Under the pieces are notes generated by a model. That model had not been told where the DNA came from, searched no databases, and was given only the letters and a program-made list of their open reading frames with translations. Below, one piece after another: positions 35,861 through 39,462 of a DNA stretch of 64,000 nucleotides (positions within the stretch are counted from its first letter, which is position 1; each line of letters opens with the position of its first letter). The position numbers and the translations under genes are program-made. This stretch comes from an uncultured Gemmatimonadales bacterium (GTDB lineage: Bacteria > Gemmatimonadota > Gemmatimonadetes > Gemmatimonadales > Gemmatimonadaceae). The stretch lies in contig CAWBZV010000003.1 in NCBI GenBank assembly GCA_963793305.1, positions 672,001 to 736,000 on the forward strand. The letters are read 5' to 3'.

Positions 35861-36009
35861 CGGTCGGGAGAGTGTGTGGTCTCTCCTGGCGAGCGTCAAG
35901 TAACGCTGCAAAGAAAAACGTATGACGCGGGCTCCCAGCGGCGCTCCCGCGCCGCAGAGAGCCAGGTCGGTTGGACAACGCTCGGCTACGCCTCGCTATC
36001 TTCGTTTCC

Positions 36010-36969
36010 GTGCCGAACGTATGGAGGGCGGTGGGGAGGAGCGCCGAGGGCAGTTCGCATCGGCGGGCGAAGCTCCCGAATCAGGATGCGCTCCGACTGT
36101 GGAATCCACACGGCGACGGGCAATCGGTGATCGTCGCCGTCGCCGACGGCCACGGGAGCGCCACGCATTTTCGCAGCGCGACGGGTTCGCGGTTCGCGGT
36201 GGAGGTGGCCGAGCGGGTGTTGCGCGATCTCGATGGCGCGTTGCGCGCGGGCGGCGCGCTGGACGCTGAGCGCGAGCAGTGGATTCGGAAGGAGATCGTC
36301 TCGCGCTGGCGTGCGTGCTGTATCGCGGACGCCGAGGCGAACCCGTTCACGTCGGCCGAGGAGGTACGTCTGAGCGGAGCGGGCGCGCGCGACCAGATCT
36401 TCGATCGCGCGCTGGCCTACGGCTCGACGCTGCTCGCGGGGTTAGCCACCGACGGGCGCCTCGTACTGCTGCAGATCGGCGACGGCGACATCCTCGCGGT
36501 CGATGCGGCGGGATCCCAGTTCCGTCCTTTCCCCCGCGACGCTCGTCACGTCGCGAACCTCACGACGTCACTCTGTCTCCCGGACGCGGTCGACAACGTC
36601 CGCGTGGCGTCGCTCTCGCCGAACACGATCTCCCTCCTTCTCTTCGCGACCGACGGCTACGCCAACTCCTTCGCCTCAAGCGAGGCTTTCGAGCGCGTCG
36701 TCGGCCCGCAGATTCTCTCACAGGTGCGCGAGCGGGGGGTCTCCTGGGTCTCTCAGGTTCTTCCGAGCTCCCTCAAAGCCGCGGCCGAGCGTGGCAGCGG
36801 CGACGACGTGACGCTCGCGATTCTCACATGCGAGGACGCCCCAGCCGGAGCCATTGCCCCGGGGCAAGGTCGCAGCGATGCACCGGTGACGCTCAGCGGG
36901 CTCGTGGTCATGCTGGGCGTGCTGCTCGTGGTCGGGTTGTGTCTCTGGCGAGTACTGCTGCCCCGTTGA
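36010..36969 (+). CDS. PP2C-family Ser/Thr phosphatase with C-terminal TM helix
   Basis: G.SH....PNQDA, VADGHGS, QIGDGD, TTSLC, ATDG, GDDVT. Confidence 0.9.
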   Translation: MPNVWRAVGRSAEGSSHRRAKLPNQDALRLWNPHGDGQSVIVAVADGHGSATHFRSATGSRFAVEVAERVLRDLDGALRAGGALDAEREQWIRKEIVSRWRACCIADAEANPFTSAEEVRLSGAGARDQIFDRALAYGSTLLAGLATDGRLVLLQIGDGDILAVDAAGSQFRPFPRDARHVANLTTSLCLPDAVDNVRVASLSPNTISLLLFATDGYANSFASSEAFERVVGPQILSQVRERGVSWVSQVLPSSLKAAAERGSGDDVTLAILTCEDAPAGAIAPGQGRSDAPVTLSGLVVMLGVLLVVGLCLWRVLLPR

Positions 36970-36973
36970 CGGG

Positions 36974-37030
36974 AAAGACGAAACCCCGGGGAATCCTCCC
37001 CCGGGGTCACGCGGCAGCCCAGGAAGCGAC
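36974..37030 (-). ncRNA. Putative small antisense RNA 1 (anti-anticodon-arm, AGG/GGG variant) with intrinsic terminator
   Basis: Minus strand GCTTCCTGGGCTGCCGCGT + ACCCCGGGGG-AGGATT-CCCCGGGGT-TTCGTCTTT; promoter immediately upstream. Confidence 0.65.
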
Positions 37031-37034
37031 TGAC

Positions 37035-37062
37035 AATCTAGGTCATGCTCCGGCGCAATCAA
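37035..37062 (-). promoter_or_regulatory. Sigma-70-type promoter of sRNA 1
   Basis: TTGATT-16 bp-TAGATT. Confidence 0.6.
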
Positions 37063-37083
37063 CGTGCAACATTCCACGTCCAC

Positions 37084-37142
37084 AAAATGCGAAACCCCGG
37101 GGAATCTTCCCCCCGGGGTGACGCGGCAGCCTCGCAAGCAAC
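37084..37142 (-). ncRNA. Putative small antisense RNA 2 (20/20 complementary to the adjacent tRNA, positions 21-40) with intrinsic terminator
   Basis: Minus strand GCTTGCGAGGCTGCCGCGTC + ACCCCGGGGGG-AAGATT-CCCCGGGGT-TTCGCATTTT. Confidence 0.72.
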
Positions 37143-37145
37143 TAT

Positions 37146-37174
37146 AATTTAGGCCGCTCTCACAGCGTGGTCAA
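37146..37174 (-). promoter_or_regulatory. Sigma-70-type promoter of sRNA 2
   Basis: TTGACC-17 bp-TAAATT. Confidence 0.68.
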
Positions 37175-37201
37175 CGTGTAATCACGCACGGCGAACTAGC
37201 G

Positions 37202-37287
37202 TGCCGAGGACGGGATTTGAACCCGCACGGCCCTTTCGAGCCAGCAGCTTGCGAGGCTGCCGCGTCTACCAGTTCCGCCACCCCGGC
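37202..37287 (-). tRNA. Non-canonical tRNA: tRNA-Leu body with Ala anticodon CGC
   Basis: GCCGGGG acceptor / CCUCGGC-A73; D-arm GCGGAACUGGUAGACGC; anticodon arm GCAGC-CUCGCAA-GCUGC; long variable arm GGCUC-GAAA-GGGCC; T-arm GCGGG-UUCAAAU-CCCGU; CCA not encoded. Confidence 0.93.
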
Positions 37288-37368
37288 ACCTCGCGTGCTG
37301 GGCGAACACTGGGAATACTGCGACACAGTAGCCAAGAAAAGCGCACCACGACTAGTCAGCGGGCGAAG

Positions 37369-37397
37369 AGTATAGCGAGTCTCCGCCACGCCGTCAT
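37369..37397 (-). promoter_or_regulatory. Putative promoter of the tRNA gene
   Basis: ATGACG-17 bp-TATACT about 80 nt upstream of tRNA G1. Confidence 0.45.
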
Positions 37398-37452
37398 CGT
37401 TGAGTTGCGAACCGTATCGTTAAGCACTGAGCGATCTACAACGAGTCGAGCG

Positions 37453-39462
37453 TCAGCGCAATCCTTGGCCTGCGCTTGTCGTTCCAAGCTGCTGCTCGCC
37501 CCAAATGTAATGCCCGAACCAGTCCAGGTTCTCCTGCATGACCGATCGTTGCTGCTTGGGTTTGTCGATTGGGTGCCCGAACCCGGGATACACGACCATG
37601 CGCACCGGCACGCCCTTATCGCGAAGCGCCTGATAGAGCTCGAACCCATTCGGGATGGGCACGCGCTTGTCGCTCCCCCCATGCTGTATCAGCGTAGGAG
37701 TCTTCGCGGTCTTGATGTACGTGATGGGCGACGTCTTCTTGTAGATCTCCGGATCATCCCACGGCGTCGCGTGGAGATACTGTCGCGTAAAGGGATGGAT
37801 GTCGGTATTGACATAGTAGGTCATCCAGTCGGAGATGCCCGCCCCGACCGAGACCGCCCGGAACCGATCGCTGAACGTGGTGATGAACGCCGAGATGTAC
37901 CCACCTTCGCTCCACCCCATGGATGCCACTCGGCTCCGATCGACGAACCCTCGAGCGATGAGATAGTCGACGCCAGAGATGACGTCGGCATAGTCCCCGA
38001 CGCCCAAGTTGCGCACATTGAGCGCCCGGAACTTCTCGCCGTATCCGGCCGAGCCGCGATAGTTCGGCCTCAGGATAACGGCGCCTTTGGAGGCAAAGAG
38101 CTCGACGGGATAGTATCGATCCGCGCCGAGCGTGGTGCGATCGACGCCGGTCGGCCCGCCGTGGATGACGACGAGCAGAGGGTATTTCTTGGTGGAGTCG
38201 AACCCAGGCGGCGTGATGAGCACGCCTTCGACGGCCGCGCCGTCGGTGGATTTCCACTGCACGAGCTGCCGTCGGGCCGACTTGAACGCCGACAGCTGGT
38301 CCCCCATGGTTGTAATCGCTTTCGGCGCGAACGGTTTGATGTCGGAGACGCCGATCTCCGGATACGCATTATCCCCGGCCGCGACGAACGCGCACGGTGC
38401 TCGCGTGCCGCGCGAGCGAGAACTGGCCGGCGATGCGCTTGGGATCGGAGAGCGTCTCGACGGTGCCAGACTTGGGATCGACGCGAGAGAGCACCTGGTA
38501 GGTACGCTCAAGCGGTGAGAAGTAGATGCCGTCCTTGTCCCAAGCGAACGGCGACGCATTCTCGTCGAACGACGTGGTGATCGCACGCGGCGTACCACCG
38601 TTCGCACTCACCACCGCGATGACCGTGTTCGTGTAGTAGAAGTACGGACTCCCATTGGCGGTCGAGAACGCGATCTCGTTCCCGTCCGGCGACCACACGG
38701 GGTTCGTATTGGGGCCGCCGGCCTCGACGATCTTCTTGACGCTCTTGTCGGCGACGGTGACGACGTAGATGGCGGCGGTGTTGGACGAGCCGAGGTCGGG
38801 ATCGCGCTGTGCGGAGAACGCGATGCGGGAGCCGTCGGGCGACCACGCGTATGAGCCGACGGTGAACTGGTCGCCCTCGGTCAGCCGCCGCGGCTCGCCG
38901 CCGGCCGCGTCGACGAGCCACAGGTGGCTCATCGAGTAGTCGCCGCCGATGACCTGGATGTCGCCGTAGGTACTATCGCGATCTTTGCGCGCTTTGGATT
39001 TCGGGTCGCGACTCACGAACGCGATGCTGCGTCCATCGGGCGACCACTCGAGCTCCGAGACGCCGGTCTCGACGCGCGTCAGCTCTCGCGCTTCGCCGCC
39101 GTTCGGCGCGATGACGTAGATCTGCGTCGAGTCCTCGAGCTTCCCGCCGGGCAGCGCGACGGGCCGCGTGGAGAGGAACGCGATCCATTGCCCGTCGGGC
39201 GACCATTTCGCGTCGAAGCTCGACCCTTTGCCGCTGGTGAGCTGCACGCGCTGTGTGCCGGCGGCGTCCGCCAGCCACAGCTCGCGCTCGAACGCATTGG
39301 CCTCCCAGTTCGTGTGGGAGACTTCGTACGCGACCCACTTTCCGTCGGGCGAGATGCGCGGCGCATTCGCGCTTTTCATCTCCAGGGACTGGTCGATCGT
39401 GGGAGCCTGAGCGTGGCGGGGAGTGCCGCACCGAGCACGAGTACAATCGCGAGTTTTCGCAT
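37453..39462 (-). CDS. S9 family peptidase (PD40 propeller + prolyl-oligopeptidase domain), frameshifts near 39410 and 38390
   Basis: Signal MRKLAIVLVLGAALPA; WSPDG repeats; IHGGP, PNYRGS.GYG, GWSEGG, D.RVP, GH. Confidence 0.9.

Follow-up and report, generated by a model that had tools for sequence, protein, structure and literature searches.

The window analysed here is a 64-kb stretch of the source genome G000 (Gemmatimonadota; positions 672001–736000 of contig C3 in a 5.72-Mb, 26-contig assembly that is 92% complete). It contains a gene for a tRNA that combines a leucine-type body with the alanine anticodon CGC and, downstream on the same strand, a 20-nucleotide (nt) stretch complementary to this tRNA, which is preceded by a promoter-like site and followed by a terminator-like hairpin. 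We propose that these elements form a two-RNA cassette, in which a leucine-bodied mis-sense tRNA would be held in check by a dedicated antisense RNA. Judged from sequence, the probability of this reading is somewhat above one half (roughly 0.55). Related cassettes are present in a patchy subset of Gemmatimonadota genomes, and their antisense stretches co-vary with the anticodon and stems of the adjacent tRNA. The core of the window cassette consists of the following features.

37202–37287, minus strand: class-II tRNA with leucine-type body and anticodon CGC (ARAGORN, Rfam and cloverleaf covariation)
37146–37174, minus strand: sigma-70-like promoter of unit 1, TTGACC, 17 nt, TAAATT (tool scan)
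37120–37139, minus strand: antisense seed of unit 1, 20 nt, complementary at 20 of 20 positions to tRNA nucleotides 22–41
37089–37118, minus strand: terminator-like GC hairpin with U-rich tail of unit 1 (fold of 37142 to 37088, hairpin of 10 pairs)

The seed of unit 1 begins 62 nt 3′ of the tRNA. It faces the 3′ strand of the D stem, position 26 and, in the anticodon arm, the 5′ stem strand, the entire loop and the first two bases of the 3′ strand. The −10 box of unit 1 ends 6 nt upstream of the seed, and the promoter scan of 900 nt returned two sites, compared with 0.1 expected. Besides the seed itself, BLAST matches of its sequence in G000 are restricted to the tRNA and to a second antisense unit (unit 2) located further downstream. 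The predicted net gain of the duplex of seed and tRNA is −23.9 kcal/mol. Read on the plus strand, the seed contains a second copy of the loop sequence CTCGCAA (37131–37137). The initial annotation had used this recurrence to argue that the anticodon is not a read error, and had concluded that the tRNA mistranslates GCG codons as leucine. The anticodon is indeed authentic, as three paralogs and two other contigs keep it, but the second CTCGCAA is not a mere proof against error: it is the core of a dedicated antisense RNA gene, which had been missed. Because of this partner, the tRNA is most likely kept inactive rather than causing constitutive mistranslation of GCG.

ARAGORN finds a single tRNA in the window (37201–37287, minus strand, anticodon cgc at position 35), and the alignment of 37287 to 37202 with the Rfam tRNA model (RF00005) scores 55.1 bits, with a gathering score of 29. 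The coordinates, intact cloverleaf, CU-CGC-AA loop, 5-base-pair (bp) variable arm, A15:U48 pair and A73 had been described correctly in every feature that can be checked; the gene lies on the minus strand. The anticodon occupies plus-strand coordinates 37253–37251 within the stem-loop GCAGC/CUCGCAA/GCUGC. The acceptor stem has 7 bp, with C:G as pair 3:70, and U8 is present. The D arm is of the leucine type, with a 3-bp stem, A14, A15, G18G19 and the A15:U48 pair, and is the same as in the tRNA-Leu genes of the same genome. The variable arm has 5 bp and a GAAA loop and is followed by GU, the T arm is normal, the discriminator is A73, and CCA is not encoded. The body thus carries the features of tRNA-Leu (A73, leucine-type D arm, U48 and long variable arm), while the anticodon is CGC instead of the NAG or YAA of tRNA-Leu. 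Two features of tRNA-Ala are missing: G3:U70 is replaced by C3:G70, and the short class-I variable loop by an arm of 5 bp with a tetraloop, the normal tRNA-Ala genes of G000 being 73–76 nt long.

The whole-assembly ARAGORN search of G000 located three diverged leucine-bodied tRNAs of 86–87 nt with the anticodon CGC, at C3:451773 (paralog a), C3:636248 (paralog b) and C3:709201 (paralog c, the window tRNA). They differ by compensated stem changes and have the loop YUCGCAA in common. A 2197-nt contig from X1, which may be the source sample, spans 36400–37953 with seven differences, none of them in the tRNA or the antisense stretches. A 97-nt contig from X2 has two changes in the anticodon arm (37255 and 37258: C32 to U and an A-to-U change in the anticodon stem) and keeps CGC. 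Since three diverged paralogs and the X1 and X2 contigs keep CGC, and the cloverleaf is conserved in 34 family members, chance or sequence error as the origin of the anticodon is excluded. G000 also has a normal tRNA-Ala set, in which CGC is present twice (74 and 76 nt) beside UGC and GGC, so that a regular tRNA-Ala reading GCG exists, and all five normal tRNA-Leu (GAG, UAG, CAG, UAA and CAA). GCG is very common, as had been supposed: it is the first-ranking codon of the genome, with 64.7 occurrences per 1000 in 685 confident open reading frames (ORFs). ARAGORN additionally calls "tRNAs" of 79–100 nt in G000 at C3:412684, C3:616291, C12:141242, C14:171327, C5:831649 and C12:205543, which are GC-rich, lack tRNA hallmarks and are probably false positives, and a tRNA-Sec at C11:60848.

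In an alignment of 34 distinct family members (24 pairs, 816 pair cells), the cloverleaf is paired in 98.4% of cells and 20 of the 24 pairs change on both sides. None of 500 shuffles reached the observed values, and slid controls were 34–44% paired. The geometry is 7/5, with the acceptor stem paired in 100% and the T stem in 98.8% of cells. Invariant positions are G1, U8, G9, G10, A14, A15, G18, G19, U33, the U before the T stem, C56, A58, C61 and A73, and the anticodon loop always has 7 nt. The initial assignment of a leucine-type body is supported by sequence. Pair 3:70 is CG in 23 members, GC in nine and UA in two; since it is never GU, recognition by alanyl-tRNA synthetase is not expected. 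This conservation fits a molecule that is still processed, charged and used as a tRNA, which argues against a mere decoy or relic.

The family tRNAs might alternatively act off the ribosome, as aminoacyl donors or regulatory RNAs whose level is set by the antisense RNA, without any mistranslation. Non-proteinogenic tRNAs exist, and two kinds of unusual members would suit such a role. L304 and L308 (same genus as G000, anticodon GGC) have C33 instead of U33, which should weaken decoding, and in L095 (GGC) and L128 (ACC) a large insertion of 55–60 nt replaces the T loop, the matching antisense unit still being present further downstream. However, U33 and the 7-nt loop are invariant in the 34 aligned members, the varied anticodons are mostly aimed at common codons, which would matter only on the ribosome, and no tRNA-dependent transferase or recurrent protein gene is found among 48 ORFs at 22 family loci. 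An off-ribosome function is therefore distinctly improbable. In mistranslating yeast tRNA-Ser, G33 curtails decoding (PMC11415595).

Family loci were identified through the tRNA alone: by BLAST against 61 relatives, by a pattern of D arm plus anticodon loop with non-A at position 35, which was scanned over the named genomes and 401 genomes of the phylum, and by further matches in the same genus. The partner was never used for finding loci. Genome G012 counts only in the denominators (61 relatives and 401 genomes) and no locus or claim depends on it. Before counting, 57, 57 and 44 loci were set aside in three pattern scans as tRNA-Leu genes interrupted by group I introns or as other sequences lacking a T loop. 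Among the 55 deduplicated loci examined, 12 have leucine and 43 non-leucine anticodons. A downstream seed that lies on the same strand and covers the anticodon with an exact anti-anticodon is present at 36 of the 43 non-leucine loci and at none of the 12 genuine tRNA-Leu loci. All seven further same-genus loci have the partner as well (six found by script, L304 by eye), which brings the total to 43 of 50. Seeds start 40–74 nt 3′ of the tRNA, or later in the two members with T-loop insertions, and most of them span tRNA nucleotides 24–41; pairing is Watson–Crick at all three anticodon positions in 36 of 36. The 43 cassettes represent 11 anticodons: CGC (19 cassettes), GCG (7), GGC (6), CUC (3), AGC (2), and GUC, GGA, AGG, ACC, GAC and CAC (1 each). 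A promoter-like site (TTGAC.-(16–18)-TA...T, at least 8 of 12 positions) lies 3–10 nt before the seed at 30 of 42 loci, compared with 1.6% of 830 control positions, and a terminator-like site follows the seed at 40 of 42 loci, compared with 14 of 42 for the same stretches read backwards. That the tRNA is a free-running mistranslator beside which the complementarity is irrelevant, as the initial annotation implied, would fit the features of the tRNA taken alone. It is very improbable given a partner that co-varies with anticodon and stems in 43 loci and is absent from the 12 genuine tRNA-Leu loci.

The pairing is specific to each locus. The alignment score of a tRNA with its own partner is 32.2, compared with 12.9 for other partners, and the predicted net heterodimer energy is −20.0 kcal/mol with the own partner (n = 40) and −3.5 kcal/mol with others (n = 120). 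RNAduplex predicts −29 to −50 kcal/mol for the family, compared with −9 to −27 kcal/mol for genuine tRNA-Leu. The homologous cassettes of genomes G001, G004, G005 and G000 (paralog a) can be aligned over leader, tRNA, spacer and terminator. Their tRNA bodies are near-identical and their anticodons are CGC, CUC, CAC and CGC, respectively; at the matching place the first three partners have GCG, GAG and GUG, and the fourth lacks the anti-anticodon part. Neighbours in the poorly resolved tRNA tree often differ in anticodon (GGC beside CGC, AGC beside CGC, GAC beside CGC). Therefore, the anticodon has switched repeatedly, each time with a matching change of the partner. Most family anticodons aim at the eleven commonest codons of G000, among which the targets rank first (GCG), fourth (GCC), fifth (GUC), eighth (CGC), ninth (GAC), tenth (GAG) and eleventh (GUG).

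The specificity of pairing also bears on the possibility that the roles are reversed, with the small RNA as the effector acting on anticodon loops of normal tRNAs or on mRNAs and the leucine-bodied tRNA serving as its decoy or sponge. The 7-nt loop part of the window seed fits the loop of the normal tRNA-Ala(CGC) too, and tRNA-sequestering RNA toxins such as CreT are known (PMC8501985). A decoy, however, would need neither A73, U33 and the T loop nor a perfect cloverleaf, yet all of these are conserved, and there would be no reason for a constant body of leucine type, whose synthetase ignores the anticodon. The seeds moreover reach into locus-specific stem sequence, and each tRNA best matches its own partner. 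We therefore regard reversed roles as quite unlikely.

Further elements of the window locus surround this core.

37035–37062, minus strand: promoter-like site of unit 2, TTGATT, 16 nt, TAGATT (seen by eye, below the scan threshold; layout like unit 1)
37008–37027, minus strand: seed of unit 2, a diverged copy of that of unit 1, complementary to the tRNA at 16 of 20 positions
36972–37008, minus strand: intrinsic terminator of unit 2 (tool: 12-pair stem and T-rich tail at 37008 to 36982; also from the fold)
37318–37326, minus strand: leader motif GTGTCGCAG, 35–39 nt upstream of the tRNA 5′ end, which starts an interrupted antisense copy of the D arm
37369–37397, minus strand: candidate promoter of the tRNA, ATGACG, 17 nt, TATACT (tool scan), about 75 nt upstream of the tRNA
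36970–37455, minus strand: whole cassette with leader, tRNA and two small-RNA units (delimited as an indel relative to genome G005, neighbours named from Pfam)

The seed of unit 2 fits the stems of the tRNA; its mismatches fall in the part facing the anticodon loop, where it has the anti-anticodon CCU and a G opposite position 33. It would suit a partner with the loop CCAGGAA (anticodon AGG, C33), and no better tRNA target for it is present in the 92%-complete assembly. For paralog b there is a separate antisense unit, matched to its different stem, and a similar promoter box upstream of the tRNA (by eye). The unit of paralog a is antisense to its variable arm and D arm. No Rfam family covers the small RNAs: other matches within 36900–37480 (F6, sX4 and sot2652) reach 14–20 bits, compared with thresholds of 46–70, and these were rejected together with BjrC68 as far below threshold.

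The leader (approximately 37290–37330) consists of the motif G[CT]GTCGCAG followed by CCAGT/CCAATT and CCACC-like blocks, which together are an interrupted antisense of the tRNA's own D arm. Of 36 family loci, 24 have a motif of the G[CT]GTC type between −34 and −45, a place where none of the 12 genuine tRNA-Leu loci has one. The leader block co-varies with the type of D arm (21 of 24 concordant), and its score against the D arm, 17.3 compared with 13.5 and 12.6 for the controls, gives modest support. An identification of the motif by eye as a sigma-54 or extracytoplasmic-function (ECF) promoter was dropped because the spacings are inconsistent. RNAduplex comparison of leader and tRNA (60-nt against 50-nt stretches) was uninformative, as GC-rich sequences pair everywhere.

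The leader is one of several features that would suit a lock acting only in cis, in which the antisense stretch is the 3′ trailer of the tRNA transcript and an alternative fold gates maturation, with no separate small RNA. No terminator separates the tRNA from the seed of unit 1, and in the predicted fold of a read-through transcript (−143.2 kcal/mol, z = −6.0) the tRNA arm pairs with the seed and no cloverleaf is formed; the leader adds a degenerate antisense copy of the D arm on the 5′ side. Against such a lock stand the promoter-like sites directly before the seeds, which are rare at control positions, and the tandem second units with their own promoter and terminator, as in unit 2 of the window and at locus L305 of genome G001. 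The cis-only lock is therefore unlikely. The second unit of L305 (700–830) follows the first, has the promoter TTGACG-17-TATAGT and carries a 20-nt seed antisense to the D arm (nucleotides 8–27), a sequence common to many leucine-type tRNAs of G001.

The window cassette is located between genes for a PP2C phosphatase (35971–36969, plus strand) and an S9 peptidase (37453–38607, minus strand), which are convergent. In G005, a member of the same genus, the two genes are adjacent in the same convergent order with about 50–90 nt between them, compared with about 485 nt in G000. The flanking genes vary from one family locus to the next, and no conserved ORF lies within the window cassette. Neither the window neighbours nor the 48 ORFs at the 22 family loci contain a synthetase, integrase or transposase domain, so that the earlier statement that no dedicated synthetase is nearby stands, and no flanking repeats were seen beside these cassettes. 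The cassette of locus L008 in G005 (1378–1584, anticodon GGA) lies between genes for Ro60 (TROVE plus vWA) and RtcB, in the opposite orientation. The Ro60–RtcB interval is the usual place of bacterial Y RNAs, and Rfam finds no Y RNA at L008.

The presence of the cassette as an indel and the decayed copies L152, L095 and L128 could suggest a neutral relic, made of a tRNA pseudogene and a partial inverted duplicate that a mobile element or recombination left behind. However, the cloverleaf shows strong compensatory evolution, as does the pairing of tRNA with partner across families and in two phyla; the promoter and terminator are likewise conserved, and no integrase, transposase or flanking repeats accompany the cassettes. 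A relic is therefore extremely improbable.

Matches to the tRNA pattern place the family in metagenome-assembled genomes (MAGs) of Gemmatimonadaceae and Gemmatimonadales, with a patchy occurrence of 19 in the 401 genomes of the phylum sample. Genomes of the genus each have two or three cassettes or more, differing in anticodon. An independent metagenome sample contributed 118 loci, of which 70 could be evaluated and 19 have a partner bearing the exact anti-anticodon, adding GUG, GCC and GGG; scores were at least 23 for these 19 and at most 18 for the rest. Three loci from Planctomycetota MAGs, L085, L123 and L132, with the aspartate or glutamate anticodons GUC, UUC and GUC, respectively, share the layout of tRNA, TTGAC(A/T) promoter, seed and terminator. 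Their seeds target the variable arm together with the 3′ anticodon-stem strand.

Several groups of similar tRNAs are without a counted partner. A viral sample gave 117 loci (L187–L303), 60 of them tRNA-like, and none of the 60 has a partner. Many of these tRNAs have long variable arms, asparagine, aspartate, histidine or isoleucine anticodons and G73, the discriminator of the new amino acid. They were ruled out as members of the same system, being mostly G73 tRNAs with asparagine or aspartate anticodons and no partner. The Terriglobia loci L035 and L048 have a 10–12-nt anti-anticodon match 50–60 nt upstream of a leucine-bodied tRNA(UGG). The tRNA promoter probably has its −35 box at the place of this match, and L035 and L048 are orthologues, so they were not counted. 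Leucine-type tRNAs with CGC and variable arms of about 25 nt, which ARAGORN misses, occur in MAGs of Alphaproteobacteria and Pseudomonadales (L078, with two in tandem, L092, L114 and L115), with no antisense stretch within 260 nt. The leucine-bodied tRNAs of L014 (genome G007) and L156 (genome G272), with the proline anticodons CGG and UGG, lack the antisense unit and are directly followed by a small Lys/Pro-rich ORF; they possibly represent a different system.

Based on the layout of the cassettes, a mechanism can be proposed. We infer that both RNAs are transcribed and pair in vivo, and that the tRNA can be leucylated and used in decoding. The anticodon of a leucine-bodied tRNA would have been switched to a non-leucine codon, which in the window is GCG, read by CGC. 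One or two small RNAs of about 50–70 nt, each transcribed from a sigma-70-type promoter of its own and ended by an intrinsic terminator, would carry the antisense sequence at their 5′ end. The small RNA may nucleate on the exposed anticodon loop and zip into the stems, and a read-through transcript could pair likewise in cis. Pairing would unfold the tRNA and make it unusable or expose it to degradation. When the small RNA falls below the level of the tRNA, leucyl-tRNA synthetase (LeuRS) would leucylate the tRNA, and leucine would be inserted at GCG codons. Work in Escherichia coli indicates that the leucine-type features suffice for LeuRS and that the anticodon is ignored. Like some other synthetases, LeuRS does not read the anticodon, and yeast tRNA-Leu variants with G or C at positions 35–36, which place leucine at proline, arginine, alanine and glycine codons, reduce growth dramatically (PMC11028032). 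The spectrum of these growth-reducing variants resembles that of the anticodons in the present family. A mis-sense gene of this kind could hardly be tolerated unless checked, and the conserved antisense RNA is therefore the obvious check.

A number of observations weigh against the proposed cassette or restrict it. Seven of the 43 non-leucine loci have no matching seed: L014, L153, L156 and L168 are intact-looking tRNAs without a partner within 170 nt, the partner of L158 (paralog a) faces only the D and variable arms, the tRNA of L152 is a truncated one, and L169 is no tRNA. At L152 (G136:C82), the tRNA ends after the anticodon loop and its 3′ half is missing, and promoter, antisense seed and terminator are intact. 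The locus counts overstate the number of independent events because the loci are related, and the tRNA tree, built from 62 rows, leaves 25 of its 59 inner branches open, so that a single origin is neither shown nor excluded. The energy figures ignore the tertiary structure and modifications of the mature tRNA, which resist invasion. Leucylation and decoding are deduced with LeuRS identity rules borrowed from other organisms. The anticodons do not uniformly aim at maximal harm, as GAC and CAC would give the substitution of valine by leucine, and AGG, AGC, ACC and GGA read codons uncommon in G000. The RNA run X20 contributed one 174-nt contig, at 37394–37567, outside the tRNA and the small RNAs; contigs cannot show small RNAs. 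Finally, a role in defence has no contextual support, because the neighbours of the window cassette and the 48 ORFs at 22 loci are unrelated, ordinary housekeeping genes with no defence or mobile genes among them.

The best precedent for the tRNA half of the cassette is provided by the nematode nev-tRNAs, class-II tRNAs derived from tRNA-Leu with non-leucine anticodons, which are charged only with leucine and decode GGG as leucine in vitro (Hamashima et al. 2012, PMC3333845). They have in common with the present family a leucine-derived class-II body and a non-leucine anticodon. However, they are eukaryotic, tend towards rare codons and are not known to have an antisense partner, whereas the present family is bacterial, aims mostly at common codons and has the antisense RNA. 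The tRNA-ProX/ProRSx systems of Streptomyces and Kitasatospora (PMC10404621) are likewise encoded bacterial mis-sense tRNAs with a mismatch of body and anticodon. They have a proline-type class-I body and a dedicated synthetase paralog, in contrast to the leucine-type class-II body, the lack of a synthetase nearby and the control seemingly exerted by RNA in the present family. The allo-tRNAs (Mukai et al. 2017, PMC5389517) resemble it in their long variable arms, many anticodons and occurrence in soil bacteria; roles as mis-sense suppressors or regulatory RNAs have been suggested for them, and toxin-antitoxin genes are sometimes nearby. They have 8/4 or 9/3 acceptor/T stems and are mostly serine tRNAs, whereas the present tRNAs have 7/5 stems, A73 and a leucine-type D arm. 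The words "antisense" and "complementary" do not occur in the text of PMC5389517, nor does "antisense" in the 2024 review of mistranslating tRNAs (PMC11415595). Neither the portions of the literature searched nor Rfam describe a tRNA gene that is paired with an antisense RNA gene of its own.

The cassette also resembles RNA-RNA (type VIII) and type I toxin-antitoxin systems, in which a potentially harmful RNA is located beside a small RNA that base-pairs with it and so neutralises it. SdsR/RyeA is an example of the RNA-RNA type. As in that type, the cassette consists of adjacent genes of two non-coding RNAs with extended complementarity, the toxicity of the tRNA being a proposal. Further features that recall toxin-antitoxin systems are the patchy occurrence, several diverged copies per genome, antisense units with a broken or missing tRNA (L152 and unit 2 of the window), which resemble orphan antitoxins, and a consensus promoter on the antisense RNA, compared with a non-consensus region upstream of the tRNA. 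There are differences from the known systems: type I toxins are peptides translated from the antisense-bound mRNA, whereas the target here is a tRNA and the cassette has no ORF. To our knowledge, no toxin of a toxin-antitoxin system is a tRNA. In CreTA, the antitoxin CreA acts through Cascade, unlike the direct antisense pairing proposed here (PMC8501985). We speculate, tentatively, that the cassettes may represent a new class of all-RNA toxin-antitoxin or abortive-infection module, with a leucine-charged mis-sense tRNA as the toxin and a short-lived antisense RNA, which unfolds its anticodon arm, as the antitoxin. The anticodon switches with matched antisense changes, the multiple copies, the orphan units and the occurrence in at least two phyla would then reflect an ongoing diversification of specificities. 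Regulated mistranslation under stress, addiction by a selfish cassette and abortive infection are all candidate roles.

Encoded mistranslating tRNAs are known, and to the question of how a tRNA that reads the commonest codon of a genome can be kept safely, the genomes analysed here suggest an answer: each mis-sense tRNA is accompanied by a dedicated antisense RNA. If this is correct, the cassette would be the first example of a tRNA that a dedicated antisense small RNA regulates or neutralises. The cassette would provide a natural on/off switch for the proteome-wide substitution of alanine by leucine and, in relatives, of arginine, glutamate, aspartate, glycine, proline, serine, valine and histidine by leucine. 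It may constitute a new RNA-only toxin-antitoxin or defence module, and would also serve as a compact, programmable means of controlling suppressor or mis-sense tRNAs.

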